Of a DNA stretch of 64,000 nt, positions 45,301 to 62,468 are shown piece by piece. How positions within the stretch are numbered: the first letter of the stretch is position 1; each line of letters begins with the position of its first letter. The notes under the pieces are model-generated. The model was not told the DNA's origin and ran no database searches. It saw nothing but the letters and a program-made list of their open reading frames with translations. The position numbers and the translations under genes are program-made. Source of the DNA: Bacteroidota bacterium (lineage in GTDB: Bacteria > Bacteroidota > Bacteroidia > Bacteroidales > JACABE01); the NCBI GenBank assembly GCA_026391675.1, contig JAPLDQ010000019.1:87780-151779 (forward strand), written 5' to 3'.

Positions 45301-45670
45301 CGAAACAACAGTTCGTTCTATCGCTGTCCCGCCATAGGCGGGAGAGAGGAAAGTCCGGGCAACATAGAGCAAGCATACTTCCTAACGGGAAGGTCCCTTC
45401 TTTGAGGGGAACAGCAAGTGCCACAGAAAATAACCGTCCCGCCTTGTGCGGGATAAGGGTGAAAATGTGAGGTAAGAGCTCACGTTCTGCTTTGGCAACA
45501 AGGCAGAAGGGTAAACCTTATGCGTTGAAAGACCAAATATACCGGATGTTAAGGGCTGCTCGTCCGATGCCGGGGGGTAGGTCGTTAGAGGCTACCGGCG
45601 ACGATAGTCCCAGATAAATGATAGAAGTCCCTTTGGGAAACAGAACCCGGCTTACAGAACTGTTGTTTTA
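45301..45670 (+). ncRNA. rnpB: RNase P RNA, bacterial type A
   Basis: Universally conserved P4 strands are present: 'GAGGAAAGTCCGGGC' (5') and 'ACAGAACCCGGCTTA' (3'). The terminal P1 pairing is AAACAACAGTTC (45303-45314) with GAACTGTTGTTT (45657-45668). Internal 'GGTAAGAGCTCAC' and 'GGGTAAACC' elements are present. ORFs called here (45150-45470 +, 45158-45424 -) are artefacts. Confidence 0.92.
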
Positions 45671-50618: not shown

Positions 50619-52220
50619 ATGAAATACAAATTCTCAGTTTTAATCGCATTCTTATGGCTGGCAGCATTCACAGTTTCAGCCGGAAACATTGAGCGTTTTA
50701 CACCGGCAGTCAGCTCAATAAAGGTTTACCTTAATGCAGCCCAGATTACACATACACAGCAACTCACGATTAAGAAAGGTGATAATAAATTTCTTTTCTG
50801 TAGCCTTGCGTCATGTATAGAACCCCGAAATTTAATCCTTGAAAAGCTGGGTAGTGCAAAGCTATTTAAACTTTCATTGATTGCCATAAATGACAGCATT
50901 GATATCTTTAGCCTTGAGCCTGAAATAGTTCAATTATTGGGAGCAAAAAAGGATACATTAATGGTTTTAGAAAGAAGAATACAGAAATTAAGGGCTGAAA
51001 TTGAAGGGCTGGAGATTCAAAAAAGAGCTATCATTAAAAATGGTAATCCTGTTGCTATTGAGATGAACAATCAAATTCTGAGCGTTAATCCAAACCTGCT
51101 GATGGATACATATGCTTCCATATCAACAACCTTAATTGATAAGAAAAAGGAGTTGAAAGATGTTATGCGGGACAAAAGGTATTGCCTTTTGACAGTATTT
51201 GGTATAAACAAGACCTTTTCCTATTCATCACAAATCAATATTATTTTTGCCATTATAAGTAATGATGGAGATGAATATACTACTGAGCTCAGCCTCTCCT
51301 ATCTTACTACCGAAGCGGCATGGAATCCTTTTTATGAAGTAGTAGCTTTAGATAATGCATCTTTAAAGCTTAATTATAATGCGAAAGTACTTAACAACAG
51401 TGGTTTAAACTGGAACAATACAGCAATTACACTTTCCACAGCAGATCCTTTTAATTATTACCGTGCTCCTTTTCTAAGTCCGGTTTATGTTGGTAAATAC
51501 AGAACAACAATAAATAATCAGAATGATAGAAACAATACTCCCATTAATGGATACAGGGATATTAAAGTACCTGACAGGGAAATCAACTTTAAGGTTGCCG
51601 GTTTATACAAGCTTTTAACTAATCCTGAGCCTTATCAGATAAATATCTGTGAATATGAACTGCATCCGGTCCTGGCTTACAGGACTGTTCCTAAAAAAGA
51701 CGCCAATGTTTATATGGTAGCCCGGATAGCAGATTGGGAAAAACTGGACCTGATAGATGGTGAAGCCAGCATTTTCAGCAATGGTCAATATCTTGGAAAG
51801 ACAATAATCTCAGCAAGTGAAACCGAGGATTCGCTGGAAATACCATTAGGCATAGTGAAAAATATTATTGTAAATTATAAGCTTTTAGGTGAATACTCAA
51901 GTAAGAAAATTTTAGGAGGAGACATTGTTTCCACTTATAGTTATGAGATGAAAATAAAGAATAATGATAATACAAAAATCTCACTGGAAATCCTTGACCA
52001 GATACCAGTTTCAGAAGAATCAGCCATTAAAACAGAAATCAATGAAATAACTGATGGTGCCGACAGGGATTTACAAACAGGATTGATTGTCTGGCGTAAA
52101 GAAATCAAAGCTACGTCAGAATGCAGTTTTACATTTAAATATTCTGTTTCCTATCCCAGACGTGGTGGTTATGGTATTCCAAAAGGGAATTACAGATACA
52201 GGAATGCGAGGTTTTTGTAA
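50619..52220 (+). CDS. DUF4140/DUF4139 (MuiA 'mucoidy inhibitor'-like, TIGR02231-type) protein
   Basis: Signal peptide. 'VSSIKVYLNAAQITHTQQLTIKKGDNKFLFCSLASCIEPRNLIL' fits the DUF4140 N-domain. There is a central coiled coil, and the C-terminal beta-rich region fits DUF4139. Confidence 0.65.
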   Translation: MKYKFSVLIAFLWLAAFTVSAGNIERFTPAVSSIKVYLNAAQITHTQQLTIKKGDNKFLFCSLASCIEPRNLILEKLGSAKLFKLSLIAINDSIDIFSLEPEIVQLLGAKKDTLMVLERRIQKLRAEIEGLEIQKRAIIKNGNPVAIEMNNQILSVNPNLLMDTYASISTTLIDKKKELKDVMRDKRYCLLTVFGINKTFSYSSQINIIFAIISNDGDEYTTELSLSYLTTEAAWNPFYEVVALDNASLKLNYNAKVLNNSGLNWNNTAITLSTADPFNYYRAPFLSPVYVGKYRTTINNQNDRNNTPINGYRDIKVPDREINFKVAGLYKLLTNPEPYQINICEYELHPVLAYRTVPKKDANVYMVARIADWEKLDLIDGEASIFSNGQYLGKTIISASETEDSLEIPLGIVKNIIVNYKLLGEYSSKKILGGDIVSTYSYEMKIKNNDNTKISLEILDQIPVSEESAIKTEINEITDGADRDLQTGLIVWRKEIKATSECSFTFKYSVSYPRRGGYGIPKGNYRYRNARFL

Positions 52221-52308
52221 AACAAAAGAATGATATTAAATTACGGTAATATTTAATATAAATCAGACAGCAGTTAAGGAATTATGATAATTGATTTAAA
52301 ACATACTT

Positions 52309-52575
52309 ATGAATGAAAATCTAAATATTAAAATAAGAAGTATGTTCATTTTTTTTGTTGGGTTTTTCCCATTTTACGTATCTGTATTTAGTGACTTTTA
52401 TAATAAATTTGAATTAGGGGTAATATTTATCTGCTTGGGTTCTATAATGCTTTCTCTTGTTTTAGGAATACTTTATTACTTTTTAAGTAAAAAAATGGCA
52501 AATACATTCAGAAACTTAATTTTAATAATTTTTATTTTAATGATAATATATGCCAATTTATGGGCTGTAAATTAA
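52309..52575 (+). CDS. Small hydrophobic protein (88 aa, about 3 TM)
   Basis: ORF track. Three hydrophobic segments. AT-rich. No homolog recognised. Confidence 0.4.
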   Translation: MNENLNIKIRSMFIFFVGFFPFYVSVFSDFYNKFELGVIFICLGSIMLSLVLGILYYFLSKKMANTFRNLILIIFILMIIYANLWAVN

Positions 52576-52637
52576 ATTCAAATTTTTGACTTCCTAAACT
52601 TTACGGATCTACTGGAAGCAGCTCTAATTTTTCAACA

Positions 52638-53507
52638 TTAAGATTTATAGCAATCCAAAACCACAAAAGGCACCTCCATTTGTAAACCGCCATTAGTTTC
52701 AGCTATTTCATTCAGCTTATTCTCACATATTGACATTATTTCATCCGCATTATCAGTGGATTCCATTATTTTCATCCAATGATTTTTAAATGCAGTTTTA
52801 ATAAAATGATGTTGCAGAAATGCAGTTCCGTCCAGAAACTTCATCACATAATTTTCTTCATAAATATGACGGATGCTGAAGCCGGCATGCTCAATCATTT
52901 CAATCTGTTGCTTTATGCTTTTCCTTTTTTGACTGATATGCTGAATGATAGCTTCAATCACTGAATAATAGCCTTCTTCGAGTAAAAGTTCTGTCAGGCA
53001 TTCGTAAAAGAGCGAAAATGTTCCCGGCAGGTTGGCTGTAATGACTAATTGCGCATTTTTTCCTGCGGTCCTGTATGCTTCTTTTAAAACAAGATCAGCA
53101 TTTTCTGTATTATTGATGCCATTATTTGAAACAATAAGATGGAAGATTTCATCATCGAAGGGCATTTCTTCGGCTTTACAATCGAAACAGCGAATGTTTT
53201 TCAACTGCATAGCTGCTGCTTTTGCTTTTAAACGGGAAATGGCAGCTTCTGAAGGATCTATACCATAACAAGTGGATGATAAACCCAGACGCTGAGAAAT
53301 TTCCAGCAGGGGGAATCCTGCACCACAGCCTATATCGAGTACATTTATATTCTTTTTATATTGTAACACATCCAGTAACTTCAGGCCGAAGGGTGCTGAC
53401 CACAATGATAATTCATCAGTTAATCCAGACATTATTTGTGTATTTTCAGCGATGCTTTCGCTGTTGAATACATTTATATCATTTAGATTTGGCTCTTGTG
53501 TTTGCAC
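52638..53507 (-). CDS. Class I SAM-dependent methyltransferase
   Basis: SAM motif I 'VLDIGCGAGFPLLE' and post-I 'YGIDPSE'. GTG start at 53507. A perfect TAGTTTTG -7 box lies on the minus strand at 53531-53524. Confidence 0.8.
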   Translation of the reverse strand: MQTQEPNLNDINVFNSESIAENTQIMSGLTDELSLWSAPFGLKLLDVLQYKKNINVLDIGCGAGFPLLEISQRLGLSSTCYGIDPSEAAISRLKAKAAAMQLKNIRCFDCKAEEMPFDDEIFHLIVSNNGINNTENADLVLKEAYRTAGKNAQLVITANLPGTFSLFYECLTELLLEEGYYSVIEAIIQHISQKRKSIKQQIEMIEHAGFSIRHIYEENYVMKFLDGTAFLQHHFIKTAFKNHWMKIMESTDNADEIMSICENKLNEIAETNGGLQMEVPFVVLDCYKS

Positions 53508-53867
53508 GTTAACATTTTTTTTACAAAACTACATAATCTATTGTTATCAAATAAACATTTGCTGTTCAATGACGCATTTTTTTTGTTAAATGACGAAAAT
53601 AAGGTATTGAACAATGATTAAATTCCGGTAAAATCAAAATTAGCTTAGTAGTTTGTGCCACAATTGAAGTGAGACTGTGAGAAATGTTTTCAGAAATTTA
53701 GTATTTATAACTGCTTTACTTGATAAGTTTTAATTCCAGCATCTTGGACAACCAATATTTTTATTAAAATGCACTTAAAGGTCTTAAAAAACTAATAGAT
53801 TGATATCGCTTTCATTTTACTATTATATAAATTAAATTTTATTAAAATCATTTCTAATTTATAAATA

Positions 53868-54116
53868 GTGCTGGTGCATTAACTTTTTATTTATATTTAT
53901 AACACGTTGATAACAAAATATATATAAGTATTCTTTGATTTTTTGAATTGAATTGACTTTTAGTTTAGCATTAAATTAAAGTGCAAGATTATGAATTCAG
54001 TAAGTATTTTTTGTTCAGCTATTAGTTTAAATAGAACTACTTACAAAAATACAAGTCAATTAAAATTTCAGAGAACAATAGGATATATTTAACTATTAAT
54101 TTTAACGCACCAGCAG
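53868..54116. other. Nested inverted repeats defining a ~250-nt potential long hairpin or structured RNA within an ORF-free AT-rich leader
   Basis: Outer arm TGCTGGTGCATTAA (53869-53882) pairs with TTAACGCACCAGCA (54102-54115) at 13 of 14 positions. Middle arm AATTGACTT (53951-53959) pairs with AAGTCAATT (54053-54061), 9 of 9. Inner arm GTAAGTA (54000-54006) pairs with TACTTAC (54038-54044), 7 of 7. Confidence 0.45.
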
Positions 54117-54495
54117 TAATTTATAAAAACAAATAACTTAAAAAATAATTATGAAATTAATCCTTCTAATTTTATTTTATTAATTTTGGATTGATAAAAT
54201 TATTATTAATTCTTATTTGATATAATGGATCTAACAAATAAACTAATAAATATTATTTATTTCTATTAGATTTTGAAATAAGTATTTAAAAAAAATAGAA
54301 ATTTAACAATAATAAAGACATTACTATTAATTAATTACAGTTACTCTAAGGGAAATAATCTATATTAAAGTTTTTATTTATTATTTTTTTGTATATTATT
54401 AAGTTAATTAAATTAAGATTTAATATCTAAAATTGTAATTTTATTAATTTTAATCTACAAAATGTATTAATATTAAAAAAATCTAATTTTATAAC

Positions 54496-54503
54496 TATTT
54501 TTG
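54496..54503 (+). promoter_or_regulatory. Candidate -7 promoter box (TAnnTTTG) for the ATPase/HNH-like operon
   Basis: 'TATTTTTG' ends 13 nt upstream of the ATG at 54517. Confidence 0.4.
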
Positions 54504-54516
54504 TAAAAAACATGAT

Positions 54517-55905
54517 ATGAAAATTCATAAAATAAGTCTAAATAATTATAATCAATTTAATAATTTAGAAATTGATTTAACTTATCCTAAAGGACATAAA
54601 AAAGAGGGAAAACCTTTGGATAAAATTTGTTTTATTGGACAAAGTGGTACAGGAAAAACAAGTCTATTAAGATTAATAAAGTACTTTATTACTAATAAAA
54701 GAGGAATAGGGACAGGGGTTTCATTAGATCCAATTGAAAAAGATAAAGTTAAAATGATAATGAGTTTTGATAAATTTTTATATGAAAAATTTGTTGAACC
54801 AAAATCTTTTCTAATTCATAATATAACAGACAAAAGCGATGATTCTTGGTTTTCTGAATGGCAAATAGCATTATCAAATCATTTCTCAACATATAAACCG
54901 ATATTAATTAATTTCCCAACTGAAAGATTAGTAAATAAGAATGAAGAGGTTATAAATGATGAAATTATCAAAAATTCTGACGAAAAGAAGAATAAAAGAA
55001 TTAAATATTTAGAAGACTTAAAACCTGGAGAAATAGTTGATTTTGCATTTGAAGATAGCTCAAAGGCATGGGATTTAGTTCTAAGTGATATAAAAAAACA
55101 TCAATCAATAGATTTAGAATGGAGAAGTAAAATTTCAGAAATTATTTTAAAAACAAACTCAGAACCGTCTGATTTTGAAAAGATAAATAGAGAATTTCAA
55201 AATTGGCTAACTAAAAACCCCAATCCACTAGATTTACTAGCAAAAGAAATAAATAAAATTCTTATAGAGTTTGGTATAAAAATCAAAACTGATATTGATA
55301 AAGAATCAATATTCCACATAGGAAGTATTCTATTGCAGACTTTAGATGGAAAAACAATAGATAGGGATTTTTGGAGTACAGGAACAAAGCAAATAATTGA
55401 CACAGCAATCCCATTAATTGAAATAAAACCTAAAAATGCAATAATTCTTATTGATGAACCAGAACGTTCATTATATCCAAATCTTCAACAAAGAATAATT
55501 GATTTTTATACAAATCTTGGAAATAATTGCCAATTCTTTTTTGCAACTCATTCACCAATTATAGCTTCAGCATTTGATCCTTGGGAAATAATTGAATTAA
55601 AATTTGATGAAAGTAAAACAAATGTTATTCAAGAAAAGAATTATCTAAATGAGCGTCATATCGATAATTATACTGTTTTTCCCAAATATTTAAAATGGGA
55701 TGGTATTTTAATGAAACTTTTTGATTTAACTGATGAAGGGAATAATAAATATAGACAAGAAGAATTACAGAAAGTTGCATCTTTAAAAAATGAATTAAAT
55801 GAATTAAAAAATAAAAGAAAAAATAAAGGTGCTGCTTTTGAGAAAAAATTAAATGAATTTATTAAACTGAAAAACAAAGTTGGATGGGATGAAAAAACTG
55901 AATAA
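54517..55905 (+). CDS. ptuA: ABC/AAA_21-type P-loop ATPase, PtuA-like (Septu-type defence ATPase candidate)
   Basis: N-terminal 'IHKISLNNYNQFNNLEIDL' (SMC/RecF-like head start). Walker A 'GQSGTGKTS'. Walker B plus D-loop 'ILIDEPERSLYP'. 'FFFATHSPIIAS' is the ATHSP signature of AAA_21/OLD-like ATPases. C-terminal coiled coil. It overlaps the next gene by 17 nt. Confidence 0.65.
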   Translation: MKIHKISLNNYNQFNNLEIDLTYPKGHKKEGKPLDKICFIGQSGTGKTSLLRLIKYFITNKRGIGTGVSLDPIEKDKVKMIMSFDKFLYEKFVEPKSFLIHNITDKSDDSWFSEWQIALSNHFSTYKPILINFPTERLVNKNEEVINDEIIKNSDEKKNKRIKYLEDLKPGEIVDFAFEDSSKAWDLVLSDIKKHQSIDLEWRSKISEIILKTNSEPSDFEKINREFQNWLTKNPNPLDLLAKEINKILIEFGIKIKTDIDKESIFHIGSILLQTLDGKTIDRDFWSTGTKQIIDTAIPLIEIKPKNAIILIDEPERSLYPNLQQRIIDFYTNLGNNCQFFFATHSPIIASAFDPWEIIELKFDESKTNVIQEKNYLNERHIDNYTVFPKYLKWDGILMKLFDLTDEGNNKYRQEELQKVASLKNELNELKNKRKNKGAAFEKKLNEFIKLKNKVGWDEKTE

Positions 55906-56527
55906 ATCGTTACAATTATCCACAAAATTTAGTTATTGGTATTCAAAAAATAAAACTAAAGATTACAAATCTACCAATGATCCTTTTTATTATGACGTTT
56001 TATATGAGTTATTAATAATTCAAGAGGGTTTATGTGCTTATACTGAAATCAGAATGATTGATGAAAAATCATTAGAAACATTAAAATCAGGATTTAATGA
56101 CGGTAAGTATTCTATTGATTTTAGACCTCAAACACCTGCACAAATTGAACATTTTTCAAAATTAAAGAAGAAATCAAATGGATGGGATTGGAATAATTTA
56201 TTTGCAGTTTATATTGATATAAATCACAAAAAAAACTATTTAGAGGATAGGTATGGAGTTTCATCTATTTTAAAACCCGATAATCCAAGTTATGATCCTT
56301 TAAAATATTTAATGTACGATTCTTCTAATCATATATTTTTCCCAAATTCAAAATTAAAAAAACCATTACAAGATAAAGTTTCAAAAATGATAATAGTTTT
56401 AGGAATAAATAATGATTTTATTAAAATGCAGAGAAGAGAATATATTAATTCAATAAAAGAGAAAGAATATTTTTTGGAAAAGAAATTGGTTATCAATCAG
56501 TTTATTACTGCTTACAATATGATTTAA
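55889..56527 (+). CDS. ptuB: TIGR02646/PtuB-like HNH-family protein with degenerate zinc ligands
   Basis: The HNH core pattern is 'GLCAYTE' (canonical C-A-Y-C-E), 'QIEHFSKL' (I-E-H-F), 'WDWNNLFAV' and 'INHKKN'. The tail 'ILKPDNP...LKYLMYDSSNHIFFPNS...VLGINNDFIKMQRREYI' matches the family's C-terminal '...LNLN..L...R'. The ATG at 55889 is preferred over the TTG at 55880. Confidence 0.6.
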   Translation: MKKLNKSLQLSTKFSYWYSKNKTKDYKSTNDPFYYDVLYELLIIQEGLCAYTEIRMIDEKSLETLKSGFNDGKYSIDFRPQTPAQIEHFSKLKKKSNGWDWNNLFAVYIDINHKKNYLEDRYGVSSILKPDNPSYDPLKYLMYDSSNHIFFPNSKLKKPLQDKVSKMIIVLGINNDFIKMQRREYINSIKEKEYFLEKKLVINQFITAYNMI

Positions 56528-56568
56528 AATATTTTTTACGTATTTATTAATATACTCCCAAATAATAC

Positions 56569-56760
56569 CTAATCATCTCTTTCAGGTCTTTCATCAACAG
56601 GTCTTCCATGAATTGGCCAATCATTTTGGCTTTTCTTTATTTCATTATCACGTCGAGCTTGGTCTTCCCTTTGCCTTCTTTCTTGTTCCTGTCGTTGTCT
56701 TTCTTGTTCAGCTCTTCTTCTTTGTTCTTCTTCAATTCTTTTTTGATCTTCATTACTCAT
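56569..56760 (-). CDS. 63-aa highly charged Glu/Arg/Gln-rich (ER/K single-helix-like) peptide
   Basis: 'RIEEEQRRRAEQERQRQEQERRQREDQARRD'. It lies 12 nt downstream of the 3-TM gene on the same strand. The low-complexity composition means a chance ORF cannot be excluded. Confidence 0.45.
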   Translation of the reverse strand: MSNEDQKRIEEEQRRRAEQERQRQEQERRQREDQARRDNEIKKSQNDWPIHGRPVDERPERDD

Positions 56761-56772
56761 AACTTAAAATAT

Positions 56773-57240
56773 TTAAAGTGAAATAATCATAAAAACAACT
56801 AATATAATAATTGCAAAAATTAATAACAATAAACTTAATCCATTTAAAATATGAGTAAGTTTATTATAAATACATTTTTTACATTCGATTTCGATTTGAT
56901 CTTCTTTTAATTCTTTACCTTTTTCTTTTTTAATAATATTTTTTATTAATTGTACCTCAAATTTATTCGCATAATATGATGTAACCTGTGAAAGTAAATT
57001 TGACACTATTGATAAAGTAAATAATATCCATGAAATTTTTAACATTAAAAAATTCACATTAGGTTTACTTAACAAAATATCTTTTACAAAGCCCATTGAT
57101 AGGGCTAAACCACCACTAGATATCGAAATAATTAATATATCAAATCGATTAAGTGAATATTTAAGATTATCTTTTGTTGCATCTAAATGGGCTTCTAAAT
57201 TAACAATATATTGACTATTTTTATTTGATATTTCTTTCAT
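56773..57240 (-). CDS. Small 3-TM membrane protein (SLATT/DUF4231-like topology; possible membrane effector)
   Basis: N-terminal soluble helix, TM1 'FDILIISISSGGLALSMGFV', TM2 'ISWILFTLSIVSNLLSQVTSY', a charged helix, and a C-terminal TM 'GLSLLLLIFAIIILVVFMIISL'. The similarity to SLATT is topological only. Confidence 0.6.
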   Translation of the reverse strand: MKEISNKNSQYIVNLEAHLDATKDNLKYSLNRFDILIISISSGGLALSMGFVKDILLSKPNVNFLMLKISWILFTLSIVSNLLSQVTSYYANKFEVQLIKNIIKKEKGKELKEDQIEIECKKCIYNKLTHILNGLSLLLLIFAIIILVVFMIISL

Positions 57241-57409
57241 ATTTACAAAATCTATTATAAATTTTCAAATCAATAACAAAAATAATACTTATTTATAGCA
57301 ATAATTAAAATGTTGATAACTTATATTATTAATTTTTTGCTATAAACAAGAATTATTGATATTTAGATAAGTTTTTTAAGAATGTTTTGAATTGTTAAAG
57401 TAAAAAAAT

Positions 57410-57886
57410 ATGCATTTTCATACTATTTTTTTATACTTTTGTCTAGTGAAAAGGATAACATCTTATATCAGTTGCATTGTCATCATTATTTTATTCCTGG
57501 CTTCTTCCACAGGAATCAGCTTTGTTATTCACCACTGCTCCAATGATCATTCCGAAGAAATACGTTTTTTTGCCATTGATTACCAGTGCGCTCACGAAAA
57601 AATTACCGATGACTGTGCAAAAGATAACTATGGCCAGCATCATTGTGATAAACACAGCAACCATCACTGCTGTAAAAACACCAGAGGCTATTTTAGAATT
57701 GCTGATGAATATACTGTTTCTAAAAGTGACATAAAAATCAATATTCCGGTTTTTGTTAATACTGCTGTAGTTGTTTCTCCTGCTTCAATTCATTCTGATT
57801 TCTTTACCTATAATAATATTTGCAGTCAGCACCCCTCCTCTTCAGGAGTGAGTATTTATTGCATGAATTCCCAGTTTCTTATCTGA
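57410..57886 (+). CDS. His/Cys-rich membrane-anchored protein upstream of the metal efflux genes (HYC_CC_PP-like putative metal-binding protein)
   Basis: N-terminal TM, then 'VIHHCSNDHSEE', 'CAHEKITDDCAKDNYGQHHCDKHSNHHCCKN'. Its position directly upstream of czcA is typical for such proteins in Bacteroidota. Confidence 0.6.
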   Translation: MHFHTIFLYFCLVKRITSYISCIVIIILFLASSTGISFVIHHCSNDHSEEIRFFAIDYQCAHEKITDDCAKDNYGQHHCDKHSNHHCCKNTRGYFRIADEYTVSKSDIKINIPVFVNTAVVVSPASIHSDFFTYNNICSQHPSSSGVSIYCMNSQFLI

Positions 57887-58061: not shown

Positions 58062-58079
58062 TTGCTAATAATAAAAATC

Positions 58080-61000
58080 ATGATAGAACATATTATAAAA
58101 TTTTCAATCAAAAATAAATTCGTTATCGGATTATTCATTGTGGCTTTAATCGGATGGGGAAGCTATTCGCTGATCCGTCTGCCCATTGATGCCATACCCG
58201 ATATTACCAATAACCAGGTACAGGTAATTGCACTGGCTCCTTCGCTGGCGGTGCAGGAAGTAGAAAGTTTCATTACTGCTCCAATAGAGGTGTCTGTTGC
58301 CAATATACCCAATATTGTGGAGCTGCGTTCTATTTCGCGACTTGGTTTATCGGTAGTTACCATTGTTTTTAAAGATAATGTTGACCTATACTGGGCGCGG
58401 CAACAGTTAAACGAACGTTTAAAGGAAGCCGAAGAAGCCATCCCTCCCGGACTGGCCAAGATTGAGCTTGCCCCTGTTTCGTCAGGATTGGGTGAGATAT
58501 TCCAATACCGCCTGGCAGTAGCAAAAGGTTATGAAGACAAGTATAATCCAATGGAACTGCGTACCATACAGGACTGGATTGTACGCCGCGAAATGCTGGG
58601 AACTCCGGGCATTGCTGATATCAACAGCTATGGTGGTTTTGTCAAGCAATATGAGATAGCCGTAAATCCTGAAAGACTCAGAGGGATGAACCTTAGTCTT
58701 ACAGATATCTTTACCGCACTCGAAAAGAACAATGAGAATACAGGCAGTGCCTATATTGATAAAAAACCCAATGCCTATTTTATACGCGGTATCGGTTTGG
58801 TAAAAACACTGGCTGATATCGAAAAGATAGTGGTTAAAAACAATACATCGGGGATTCCTATATTAATCCGTGATATTGCCAAAGTGGAATATGGCAGTGC
58901 TACCCGTTACGGCGCTTTTGTGGTTGACACATCAGAAGCTGTGGGCGGTGTGGTTATGATGCTGAAAGGAGCCAATGCCCATGAAGTGATAGAAGATGTT
59001 CAGGAACGCATTAAAGCCATACAAAAATCATTACCAAAAGCTGTAAGAATTGAACCTTATTTAAACCGTTCCGACCTTGTTGGACGTGCCATTGGTACGG
59101 TTTCAAAAAACCTTATTGAAGGGGCTTTAATAGTAATTTTTATTCTTGTTCTTCTGCTGGGAAATATGAGGGCCGGTCTCATTGTGGCTTCTGTGATTCC
59201 GCTTTCCATGCTCTTTGCTATTTCACTGATGAATCTGTTCGGAGTATCGGGTAATCTGATGAGCCTGGGTGCCATTGATTTCGGATTAATTGTAGACGGT
59301 GCTGTTATCATCGTCGAAAGCGTGGTGCACAGGATATCGAAAAGCAAGACACATCACTTAGGTATTGAACGGCTTTCGCAACAGCAAATGGATGAGAATG
59401 TATTTGAATCAGCCAAACGCATGATGAGTTCAGCTACTTTCGGACAAATCATCATCCTTATCGTTTATCTTCCTATTATTGCGCTGGTAGGCATTGAAGG
59501 AAAGATGTTCCGCCCGATGGCCCAGGTAGTGGCTTTTGCACTGCTGGGTGCTGCTATACTTTCCCTGACTTATGTTCCTATGGCTTCCGCACTATTTCTG
59601 AGTAAAAAGACTGTATCTAAAGCAAATTTATCGGACAAACTGATGGAATTGATTACTAAAGCTTTTAATCCTGCAATTGCTTATGCATTAAAACATAAGA
59701 TGCAGGTTTCATTGGCAGCTATAGTATTATTTATTCTGAGTCTTTTGCTGTTCACACAATTAGGAGGCGAATTTATTCCTCAGCTCGAAGAAGGAGATCT
59801 GGCAGCAGGTGTTATGACACTACAGGGCGGGTCATTGTCAAATACAGTTGATCAGGTAAAAAAAGCAAATAAGATATTACTTGACAATTTCCCTGAAGTT
59901 AAACATGCAGTCTGTAAAATAGGTGCAGGAGAAATCCCTACTGACCCCACTCCTATGGAAACCGGTGATTATATTATTACACTCAAGGATAAAAGTGAAT
60001 GGACTTCTGCTAAAAGCCGTGAAGAACTGGTAGCAAAAATGGAAGATAAACTGGTAACACTGGCAGGGGTTAAATTTGAATTCCAGCAACCTATACAAAT
60101 GCGATTTAACGAATTGATGACAGGGTCAAAACAGGATGTAGCCATTAAAATATTTGGCGATAATCTTGGGACACTGGCTGATAAAGCAGCAGAAGTAGAA
60201 AAAATCATTCAGAAAGTTGAAGGAGTAGAAGATATTAATGTGGAGAAACTCACAGGACTGGCTCAGGTTCAGATTAATTTCAACCGCGACAGGCTTGCAC
60301 AATACGGACTTTCTGTGGATGATGGCAGTAAAATATTACGTTCTGCTTTTGCAGGGAGTCAGGCAGGTGTGGTTTATGATGAAGAAAAACGATTTGCACT
60401 GGTAGTGCGTCTGGATAAAGATTACCGCCAGAGTATAAAAGATGTAAAAAGCCTAACCCTTGCCCTGCCCAATGGCGGACAAATTCCTTTTGAACAGGTG
60501 GCGGATATCAGCATACAATCCGGACCGGCTCAGGTTTCAAGAGAAGATACCAAACGAAGGATAACCATTGGATTTAATGTCCGAATGCGGGATGTGGCAA
60601 GTGTTATTGAAGATGTTAAAACCAAAATTGATCAGCAGATTATATTACCCAGTGGATATTATGTATCCTATGGCGGACAGTTCAAAAATCTGGAAGCTGC
60701 CAGAAACAGACTGGCCATTGCTGTTCCTGTGGCTTTATTATTGATTTTTGTATTACTATATTTTACTTTTCATTCCGTTAAACAATCCCTGTTAATTTAT
60801 ACTGCAGTTCCCATGTCAGCCATAGGCGGTATTATCGCACTCTGGCTTAGAGGAATGAATTTTTCCATATCAGCCGGTGTTGGTTTTATTGCTTTGTTTG
60901 GTGTGGCGGTACTCAATGGCATCGTATTGATTGCCGAATTTAACCGGCTGGAAAAAGAAGGTATCACAGATATCAACGAACGCGTGCTTAAAGGATTGAA

Positions 61001-62468
61001 AACCCGTCTGCGTCCTGTAATCATGACGGCTGCCGTTGCTTCGCTCGGATTTTTACCCATGGCATTATCAACTTCAGCCGGTGCCGAAGTACAGAAACCT
61101 TTGGCAACTGTTGTAATTGGTGGGCTTATCACAGCAACATTACTTACATTGCTTATACTTCCTGTTTTCTATATTATTTTCTCCAACTATAAATTCAGCA
61201 TTTCATTTAAAAGCAAAACATCCAAAGTAATTAGCATAGTTATATTAGTATTTATGACAACTTGCTGTTTTATGAATGTAAAGGCACAGGAAATAAAGTA
61301 TATCAATTTGCATGATGCGATACAAATGGCGCTGGACAGGAATTTAAATCTCCGTTCTTCCGCTTATGCCGTTGACGAACAAAAAGCGATGAAAGCTGCT
61401 AGCTGGGATATCAGCAAAACCAATATTGAACTGCAATACGGGCAATTTAATTCTTATGAAAAAGACAATGGGTTAACAGTATCCCAGTCCTTTGCATTTC
61501 CAACGGTATATATGATGCAAAGCAAACTGGCCAATGCCAGGGTAAAAAGCAGTGAATGGCAGTTGAAAAGTGCACAACTTGAAATTACCACTCAGCTTAA
61601 GCAACTTTACTGGCAATTGGCTTATCTGTTCTCAAAACAAAAATTACTGATCTATCAGGACAGTCTTTTTTCAAGTTTCCAACGGGCAGCTGAATTAAGG
61701 GCTAATTCGGGTGAAACCATTAAACTTGAAATGATTACGGCACGTTCGCAAAGTATGGAAGTTAAGAACCAGCGTTATCAGGTAAATGCTGATATAGGCA
61801 TTTATTTACGTAAACTGAGGACATTACTGAATACTGATATTTTAGTTTATCCGGCTGATATCATACTTAAACGGATTAATTACACAGTAGTTCCCTTAAC
61901 TTCTGAAATAGCCAATAATCCATCTCTGGCTTATATGCAGCAACAGATAGAGGTTTCGCAAAAAGAAAAACAAGTCGAAGTAAACCGCAGCTTACCCGAT
62001 CTAAGTATTGGCTATTTCAGCCAAACCATAAGGGGTACGCAGGAGGTAAATGGCCTTCCCCGTAGCTTCGGTGCCGGTGACCGTTTTACCGGCGTACAAT
62101 TGGGTATCTCCATTCCGCTTTGGTTTATGCCTTATAAAGCAAAAATAAAGTCGGCTCAGATTCAGGAGAATATGGCCAGGACAGATGCTGAAAATTACAA
62201 GAATACACTATCAAATAATTATCTTTCCTTATTGGATGAATATGCAAAATATCTCGGGAGTATTAATTATTACGAACAGCAGGCAGTTCCTGAAGCTGAG
62301 TTAATCATTGAACAAGCCAGCCAGAGTTATAAAGCCGGTGCAATGGATTACCTGGAATATATACTGAGTCTGAACCGTGCGCTGATTATTAAACAAAATC
62401 AACTGGATGCCATTAACAACTATAATCAAACCGTTATCAACATTGAGTTTGTTTGCGGGAAGTTGTAA
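58080..62468 (+). CDS. czcA: CusA/CzcA-family heavy-metal efflux RND pump fused in frame to a TolC/CzcC-like outer-membrane factor
   Basis: 'MIEHIIKFSIKNKF' is a typical CzcA start (the ATG at 58080 is preferred to the TTG at 58062). The RND region has 12 TM segments and runs to about aa 1040. 'KSKTSKVISIVILVFMTTCCFMNVKAQE' is signal-peptide-like, beginning near 61210. 'LHDAIQMALDRNLNLRSS...' opens a TolC-type region with two-repeat helical content running to the stop at 62468. Confidence 0.85.
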   Translation: MIEHIIKFSIKNKFVIGLFIVALIGWGSYSLIRLPIDAIPDITNNQVQVIALAPSLAVQEVESFITAPIEVSVANIPNIVELRSISRLGLSVVTIVFKDNVDLYWARQQLNERLKEAEEAIPPGLAKIELAPVSSGLGEIFQYRLAVAKGYEDKYNPMELRTIQDWIVRREMLGTPGIADINSYGGFVKQYEIAVNPERLRGMNLSLTDIFTALEKNNENTGSAYIDKKPNAYFIRGIGLVKTLADIEKIVVKNNTSGIPILIRDIAKVEYGSATRYGAFVVDTSEAVGGVVMMLKGANAHEVIEDVQERIKAIQKSLPKAVRIEPYLNRSDLVGRAIGTVSKNLIEGALIVIFILVLLLGNMRAGLIVASVIPLSMLFAISLMNLFGVSGNLMSLGAIDFGLIVDGAVIIVESVVHRISKSKTHHLGIERLSQQQMDENVFESAKRMMSSATFGQIIILIVYLPIIALVGIEGKMFRPMAQVVAFALLGAAILSLTYVPMASALFLSKKTVSKANLSDKLMELITKAFNPAIAYALKHKMQVSLAAIVLFILSLLLFTQLGGEFIPQLEEGDLAAGVMTLQGGSLSNTVDQVKKANKILLDNFPEVKHAVCKIGAGEIPTDPTPMETGDYIITLKDKSEWTSAKSREELVAKMEDKLVTLAGVKFEFQQPIQMRFNELMTGSKQDVAIKIFGDNLGTLADKAAEVEKIIQKVEGVEDINVEKLTGLAQVQINFNRDRLAQYGLSVDDGSKILRSAFAGSQAGVVYDEEKRFALVVRLDKDYRQSIKDVKSLTLALPNGGQIPFEQVADISIQSGPAQVSREDTKRRITIGFNVRMRDVASVIEDVKTKIDQQIILPSGYYVSYGGQFKNLEAARNRLAIAVPVALLLIFVLLYFTFHSVKQSLLIYTAVPMSAIGGIIALWLRGMNFSISAGVGFIALFGVAVLNGIVLIAEFNRLEKEGITDINERVLKGLKTRLRPVIMTAAVASLGFLPMALSTSAGAEVQKPLATVVIGGLITATLLTLLILPVFYIIFSNYKFSISFKSKTSKVISIVILVFMTTCCFMNVKAQEIKYINLHDAIQMALDRNLNLRSSAYAVDEQKAMKAASWDISKTNIELQYGQFNSYEKDNGLTVSQSFAFPTVYMMQSKLANARVKSSEWQLKSAQLEITTQLKQLYWQLAYLFSKQKLLIYQDSLFSSFQRAAELRANSGETIKLEMITARSQSMEVKNQRYQVNADIGIYLRKLRTLLNTDILVYPADIILKRINYTVVPLTSEIANNPSLAYMQQQIEVSQKEKQVEVNRSLPDLSIGYFSQTIRGTQEVNGLPRSFGAGDRFTGVQLGISIPLWFMPYKAKIKSAQIQENMARTDAENYKNTLSNNYLSLLDEYAKYLGSINYYEQQAVPEAELIIEQASQSYKAGAMDYLEYILSLNRALIIKQNQLDAINNYNQTVINIEFVCGKL

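Follow-up and report, generated by a model that had tools for sequence, protein, structure and literature searches.

Insertion sequences (IS) such as IS10 and IS50 make 9-bp duplications, and are among those described as limiting the translation of their transposase, in these two cases by occlusion. Insertions of IS and MITEs upstream of genes frequently change expression. A system of another kind, retron Eco7, uses PtuAB, but in an architecture that differs from that of the locus described here (PMC12673091, PMC12819146). In the 64,000-nt stretch of Bacteroidota DNA that we analysed (the window), nested inverted repeats lie in the leader of a ptuA gene. With a probability of roughly 0.93, window positions 53866-54118 are a MITE (miniature inverted-repeat transposable element), a non-autonomous 253-bp internal-deletion derivative of a 1322-bp IS of the IS4 family.

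The PtuA gene (54517-55905) matches the PADLOC PtuA model at 4e-65, and the PtuB gene (55880-56527) matches HNH_I-A at 1.6e-18 and the PtuB models at 1e-13. By these matches the two genes are a genuine Septu pair, as the first-pass annotation had named them. The PtuB-like HNH protein scores best on the PADLOC model for the HNH of retron type I-A, though the island is without a reverse transcriptase (RT). Both genes fall within an AT-rich block (approximately 53650-57400) of 13-28% GC, compared with 35-45% in the flanks, which also holds an unannotated gene for a 155-aa predicted membrane protein (56773-57240, minus strand). Its neighbours are a methyltransferase gene (52638-53507, minus strand) and a CzcA-type efflux gene (58062-62468), and the block looks like a horizontally acquired islet between the methyltransferase gene and the czcA-type efflux operon. 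A gap of 398 nt separates the MITE from ptuA, whose leader, at 1009 nt, is unusually long compared with those of its homologues. RNase P RNA class A (45305-45670, 272 bits) is the only match at Rfam gathering level in the window, and a tRNA/tmRNA search found none.

The first-pass annotation had described three concentric complementary pairs in an ORF-free, very AT-rich setting. All three are in the sequence, the start it gave being one base off, and the setting is as described: GC content in the leader is 13-23%, and six-frame translation of its 917 nt meets stops in all six frames. The outer pair, TGCTGGTGCATTAA (53869-53882) and TTAACGCACCAGCA (54102-54115), is complementary at 13 of 14 positions, with a mismatch that reads A.C on the plus strand and G.U on the minus strand. 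The outer repeat is in fact 17 nt long, running as TAGTGCTGGTGCATTAA from 53866 to 53882 and as TTAACGCACCAGCAGTA from 54102 to 54118. In the middle pair AATTGACTT (53951-53959) is complementary to AAGTCAATT (54053-54061), and in the innermost GTAAGTA (54001-54007) is complementary to TACTTAC (54039-54045).

Repeats of the outer type, defined as inverted 14-mers that contain six or more G/C and no more than one mismatch, were absent from all of 1000 dinucleotide shuffles of 53600-54516 (0/1000). AT-only 14-mer inverted repeats are common in these shuffles (mean 3.8 per shuffle), a perfect 9-mer pair occurs in 44% of them and a 7-mer pair in 96%. The two inner pairs, taken singly, are within chance, and the outer pair alone is beyond it. 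The long hairpin that had been proposed was checked on both strands and is more stable than shuffled sequence on each: the RNA fold of 53860-54125 has a free energy of -59 kcal/mol on the plus strand (z -4.67, 0/200 shuffles) and a z of -3.72 on the minus strand. In the minimum-free-energy structure 53930-53948 pairs with 54059-54077, contiguous with the middle 9-mer pair, and the second tier of the hairpin is made up of the left subterminal repeat at 53930-53948 together with 53951-53959. The middle pair overlaps a subterminal inverted repeat that is kept in the parent IS, while the innermost 7-mer pair is found in the window copy only.

The element and its flanks can be set out as follows.

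53857-53865, no strand: left target-site duplication, 9 bp, ATTTATAAA; identical to 54119-54127 and abutting the element.
53866-54118, plus strand (the sense of the former transposase gene): very probable MITE, 253 bp, with homology to both IS ends.
53866-53882, plus strand: left terminal inverted repeat TAGTGCTGGTGCATTAA; matches the family consensus TAGTRCTGGTGCGTTAA at complete left ends.
53930-53948, plus strand: left subterminal inverted repeat ATTCTTTGATTTTTTGAAT; homologous to GTTCTTTGATTTTTTGATT at IS positions 65-83.
53962-53992, plus strand: IS 5' UTR hairpin ending on the former transposase start codon; predicted in 17 of the 17 copies that keep the ATG.
53992-54093, plus strand: decayed 5' end of the transposase gene (ATGAATTCA..., 33 codons, MNSVSIF...); ATGAATTCAG is conserved with the transposase start (MNSGKY...).
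54026-54038, no strand: approximate internal deletion junction, where the end homologies stop and start; about 1060 bp of the IS are absent.
54059-54077, plus strand: right subterminal inverted repeat AATTAAAATTTCAGAGAAC; aligns to AATCAAAATGTCAATGAAC of the IS and pairs with 53930-53948.
54102-54118, plus strand: right terminal inverted repeat TTAACGCACCAGCAGTA; matches the family right end TTAACGCACCAGCACTA.
54119-54127, no strand: right target-site duplication, 9 bp, ATTTATAAA; identical to 53857-53865.

Window positions 53866 to about 54028 align with IS positions 1 to about 165, and positions 54034-54121 align with IS positions 1225-1312, at 81% identity to the IS copy L085. Left-end homology ends at around 54025-54028 and right-end homology begins at around 54034. 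The missing 1060 bp or so are essentially the entire transposase gene, and what the MITE has retained is the first ~165 nt of the IS (terminal repeat, 5' UTR and decayed transposase start) and its last ~90 nt. Identity between the window copy and the IS copies found here is about 70-76%, and the ORF remnant is frameshifted. The termini of the window element read TAG...GTA and those of the family TAG...CTA; diverged as it is, and with GTA rather than CTA as its right triplet, this copy may no longer be mobile. The 64-kb window contains no second copy of the element and, by tblastn with the transposase, no transposase.

That the feature might be the relic of a MITE had been the fallback of the first-pass annotation, and it is this suggestion that has held. 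Terminal repeats matching those of the IS, a duplication identical at 9 of 9 bp, small size without a transposase, homology to both ends of full-length IS copies and dispersed copies at unrelated loci are all observed directly. The outer arms are the ends of a dispersed repeat, which by the first-pass annotation's own measure speaks against a structured RNA.

The parent IS is 1322 bp long, and 12 copies at or near full length (1310-1324 bp) were obtained from metagenomes, their hosts being Bacteroidota, mostly Flavobacteriia-like contigs. A 125-nt 5' UTR precedes its single gene, which encodes a 389-aa transposase with DUF4372 and DDE_Tnp_1 domains; intact, uninterrupted transposases of 389-391 aa are present in seven copies. 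The example at L077:821-1990 reaches 239.6 bits against NF033592 'IS4 family transposase' (NCBIfam transpos_IS4_1; cutoff 115) and matches PF01609 (DDE_Tnp_1) at 2.1e-24 and PF14294 (DUF4372) at 3.2e-31. Judged by a transposase that passes this curated model, the parent element belongs to the IS4 family.

Its 17-bp terminal inverted repeats (TAGTRCTGGTGCGTTAA) agree at 17/17 positions in the full-length copy L077. Within them lies a subterminal pair, GTTCTTTGATTTTTTGATT at positions 65-83 being 84% complementary to AATCAAAATGTCAATGAAC, which lies ~55-70 nt from the right end. Full-length copies have this pair as well as the terminal repeats; the pair was seen in L077:696-2017 and also in L083:576-1896. 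The left subterminal block is near-invariant across distinct left ends, with L060 lacking 8 nt of it. This block holds tandem TTTGA motifs, which, from their sequence, may be extra binding sites for the transposase or a host factor.

A hairpin in the 5' UTR of the parent IS covers the transposase start codon, with a 3' arm that runs onto the AUG. The equivalent of window positions 53962-53992 was compared in L009 and L060-L090, where every one of the 17 copies with the ATG retains the hairpin, and compensatory substitutions are found in L084, L085, L090 and the window copy. By analogy with other IS, it probably acts as a translational brake that limits transposase synthesis. In L064 (1793-1795), and likewise in L063 and L065, an in-frame TGA stands where other copies have GGA (Gly), splitting the transposase into a 47-aa ORF and a second ORF of roughly 306-329 aa; these are one IS copy seen in three samples. 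A nonsense mutation may explain the TGA; recoding of the codon is a less likely explanation.

A scan of 185,579 genomes, one per species, for the two-arm pattern at the observed spacing found one other locus only, in Mariniflexile sp. HMF6888 (L009). The element there measures 245 bp, is flanked by genes for a lipoprotein and an SDR (short-chain dehydrogenase), lies a long way from any PtuAB, and aligns with the window element from end to end at a mean column identity of 80%. The two share the ends, TTCTTTGATTTTTTGA exactly 47 nt past the left arm, the hairpin and ATGAATTCAG. The Mariniflexile ORF that begins at that ATG, MNSGKYIFSQLLDFVNKYELEK*, encodes 22 aa and is better preserved than the remnant in the window. 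Its sole Pfam match is to DUF4372 (profile positions 1-20, E 0.0065), and, padded with X for the protein search, it proved 91-95% identical to three short DUF4372 ORFs (P0121-P0123). At the corresponding loci L063, L064 and L065 a short DUF4372 ORF is followed by an in-frame DDE_Tnp_1 ORF, and in L064 the same repeats enclose a 1323-bp element.

A relaxed metagenome scan for the left repeat plus the UTR motif returned 26 loci, many of which sit where a contig ends, as repeats are expected to. Eleven of the 26, together with L064, are the copies at or near full length, and one further locus (L066) is a 271-bp MITE. This brings the MITE-sized copies to three (window, L009 and L066), with somewhat different right-hand breakpoints. 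Both L009 and L066 occupy unrelated intergenic sites with different flanks and duplications and no PtuAB nearby, and these two less decayed MITEs fold as stronger long hairpins than the window copy (z -7.9 and -7.6). Perfect 9-bp duplications in the same register as that of the window copy flank L066, L077, L079, L083 and L090. Nine of 15 complete copies are without a clean duplication, perhaps because metagenome assembly produced chimeras or because copies recombined with one another. Partial forms were also seen: L075 is an IS derivative with left repeat and UTR only, and L060/L061:2884-3174 (Lutibacter sp.) has a degenerate left repeat TTAATACTGGTGCGTTAAT and a 57-aa DUF4372 ORF, with no recognisable right repeat.

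Our first metagenome and viral scans, made with the 'A' form of the left arm (GCTGGTGCATTAAC...), found nothing because the IS copies carry a 'G' at that position. When viral contigs were scanned with one arm only, 50 loci came up, each a chance match 20-23 nt long, and the UTR motif is absent from viral contigs. Six IMG/VR contigs (L012, L022, L026, L027, L035 and L049) have in common a 22/23-nt match to window 53862-53884 that does not extend; it probably has nothing to do with the MITE and is a conserved word of coding sequence. Blastn of two MITEs against the PLSDB plasmids returned either two spurious Borreliella matches or none.

The only public sample with these proteins is SRR20698640, and its Logan assembly, for which we take k to be 31, breaks inside the element. 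The end of contig L002 falls at window position 53895, exactly 30 nt past the left boundary at 53866, as happens where a k=31 graph branches at the boundary of a repeat. The other contig, L001, starts at 54009, and its first 31-mer reaches 54039, at about the deletion junction. The break suggests that the sample holds other copies sharing the left ~170 nt of the element. L001 also differs from the window at 54046-54047 (AA to GT), a hint of further copies or variants in the sample.

The first-pass annotation had instead put forward a structured RNA that accompanies the PtuAB genes. Such a non-coding RNA, a dedicated accessory of PtuAB (Septu) that sequesters or regulates it as msDNA does in retron Eco7, would suit a fold more stable than shuffles on both strands, a position 398 nt upstream of ptuA in the orientation of the former transposase gene, a PtuB that in PADLOC scores highest on the HNH of retron type I-A, and the existence of retron-PtuAB systems (PMC12673091, PMC12819146). 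However, the closest PtuA homologues (72-76% identity) have short, dissimilar upstream spacers, of 68 nt in L007 and 238 nt in L004, L005 and L006, with the contig edge at 367 nt in L008. Conservation in homologous leaders was among the checks that had been proposed for this RNA, and blastn of the window leader against the upstream regions of these five loci detected no similarity. The other copies of the element are at unrelated loci, and none of the 33 element-family loci (148 kb) gave a match to PtuA or PtuB by tblastn. An Rfam search over 53450-54600 yielded no match at E values up to 1, and every structural tier can be accounted for by ancestry from the IS ends. We regard this RNA as very unlikely. 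A relic retron msr-msd that has lost its RT, with the outer arms as a1/a2 and the inner stem as the msd hairpin, is more improbable still, although outer inverted repeats around a long inner stem fit its general shape and the retron I-A match of the PtuB-like HNH would agree with it. The 917-nt leader, with its stops in all frames, holds neither an RT ORF nor a remnant of one, an RT would not fit into the 398 nt before ptuA, and a scan of the flanking ORFs from 50619 to 57886, of which PtuA, PtuB and the methyltransferase are the nearest, found no RVT domain. In sequence the supposed a1 and a2 are the same as IS4-family terminal repeats, a 9-bp duplication accompanies them, and IS UTR and transposase start fill the space between. 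Retron ncRNA identity was rejected as refuted by the homology to IS; an adjacent RT and an Rfam match were also looked for and not found. Chance pairing in low-complexity AT-rich DNA can be given practically no weight: the frequency of AT-only 14-mers in shuffles and the ordinariness of the 9-mer and 7-mer pairs are in keeping with it, but the outer pair is not reproduced in any shuffle, and homology of the whole element to sequences in other genomes already refutes it. An integron attC site, for which the R''/R' consensus is RYYYAAC/GTTRRRY, was also considered and dropped, because this consensus does not match the arms and the element is longer than such a site would be; a scan for an intrinsic terminator found none.

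An element that is a MITE by origin might still have been exapted, altering ptuAB expression by supplying or blocking a promoter or by acting as an insulator or processing site. It was inserted upstream of ptuA with the direction of IS transcription toward that gene, in a leader unusually long compared with those of homologues, and these features would be in line with such a role. Against it, a Bacteroidota-type -7 motif (TATTTTTG), read by eye ~12-19 nt before the ptuA ATG, suggests that ptuA has its own proximal promoter, and the yield of a sigma-70-type scan was not above that of shuffles (19 found, compared with 13.7 +/- 3.7). Exaptation of this general kind seems unlikely, and the chances are at least as slim that the MITE was co-opted in the ptuAB leader to tune expression through read-through from a residual IS promoter, or through its hairpin as an RNase III or termination signal. 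If this were true, a transposon relic would be regulating a defence island with a potentially toxic ATPase-nuclease pair in Bacteroidota.

The MITE reading also offers a route to the concentric arms. Deletion of the middle of the IS brings the two repeat tiers within 250 nt of each other, so that any single strand can form a long hairpin of nested arms. Mobilised in trans by the transposase of a full-length IS copy, the MITE would then have landed in the AT-rich spacer at the target ATTTATAAA, 398 nt upstream of ptuA. Its siting beside PtuAB would be incidental, and decay after insertion would have left the ~70-76% identity to the IS and the frameshifted ORF remnant.

The finding is otherwise an ordinary one, a decayed IS4-family MITE in the AT-rich spacer of a defence island. 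With it a false lead is disposed of, in that this Septu system is without an attached RT-less "retron-like" RNA. It also documents an apparently unnamed Bacteroidota family, comprising an IS4-family IS of the DUF4372 type and its MITE derivatives, marked by two tiers of inverted repeats and a covariation-supported hairpin over the transposase start codon. A record of this family is of use for annotating repeats and accounts for breaks in the assemblies of these genomes, and it presents the AT-rich spacers of defence islands as landing pads for such elements.

Set beside the described systems, the locus most resembles the IS-derived MITEs of bacteria, non-autonomous elements that arise by internal deletion and are mobilised in trans. 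At 253 bp and without a transposase, it has the terminal repeats of an autonomous IS, a 9-bp duplication of the parent's length, an interior made of two IS ends, copies at unrelated intergenic sites in different genomes and a long hairpin. It is unlike them in that only three MITE-sized copies were found here, with one in the 64-kb window, and in the decay of this copy. Retron Eco7 (Ec78) likewise has a PtuA/PtuB pair downstream of nested inverted repeats, whereas this locus has no RT, its element shows IS-end homology, and the element is not conserved with PtuAB. The parent IS is like the IS4 family in passing NF033592, in its DDE_Tnp_1 domain, 1.3-kb length, short terminal repeats and 9-bp duplication, and unlike it in its N-terminal DUF4372 and in an extra subterminal repeat ~65 nt from each end. 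Its hairpin over the start codon recalls the translational occlusion of IS10 and IS50, although its termini are TAG...CTA whereas the ends of those two elements begin CT...
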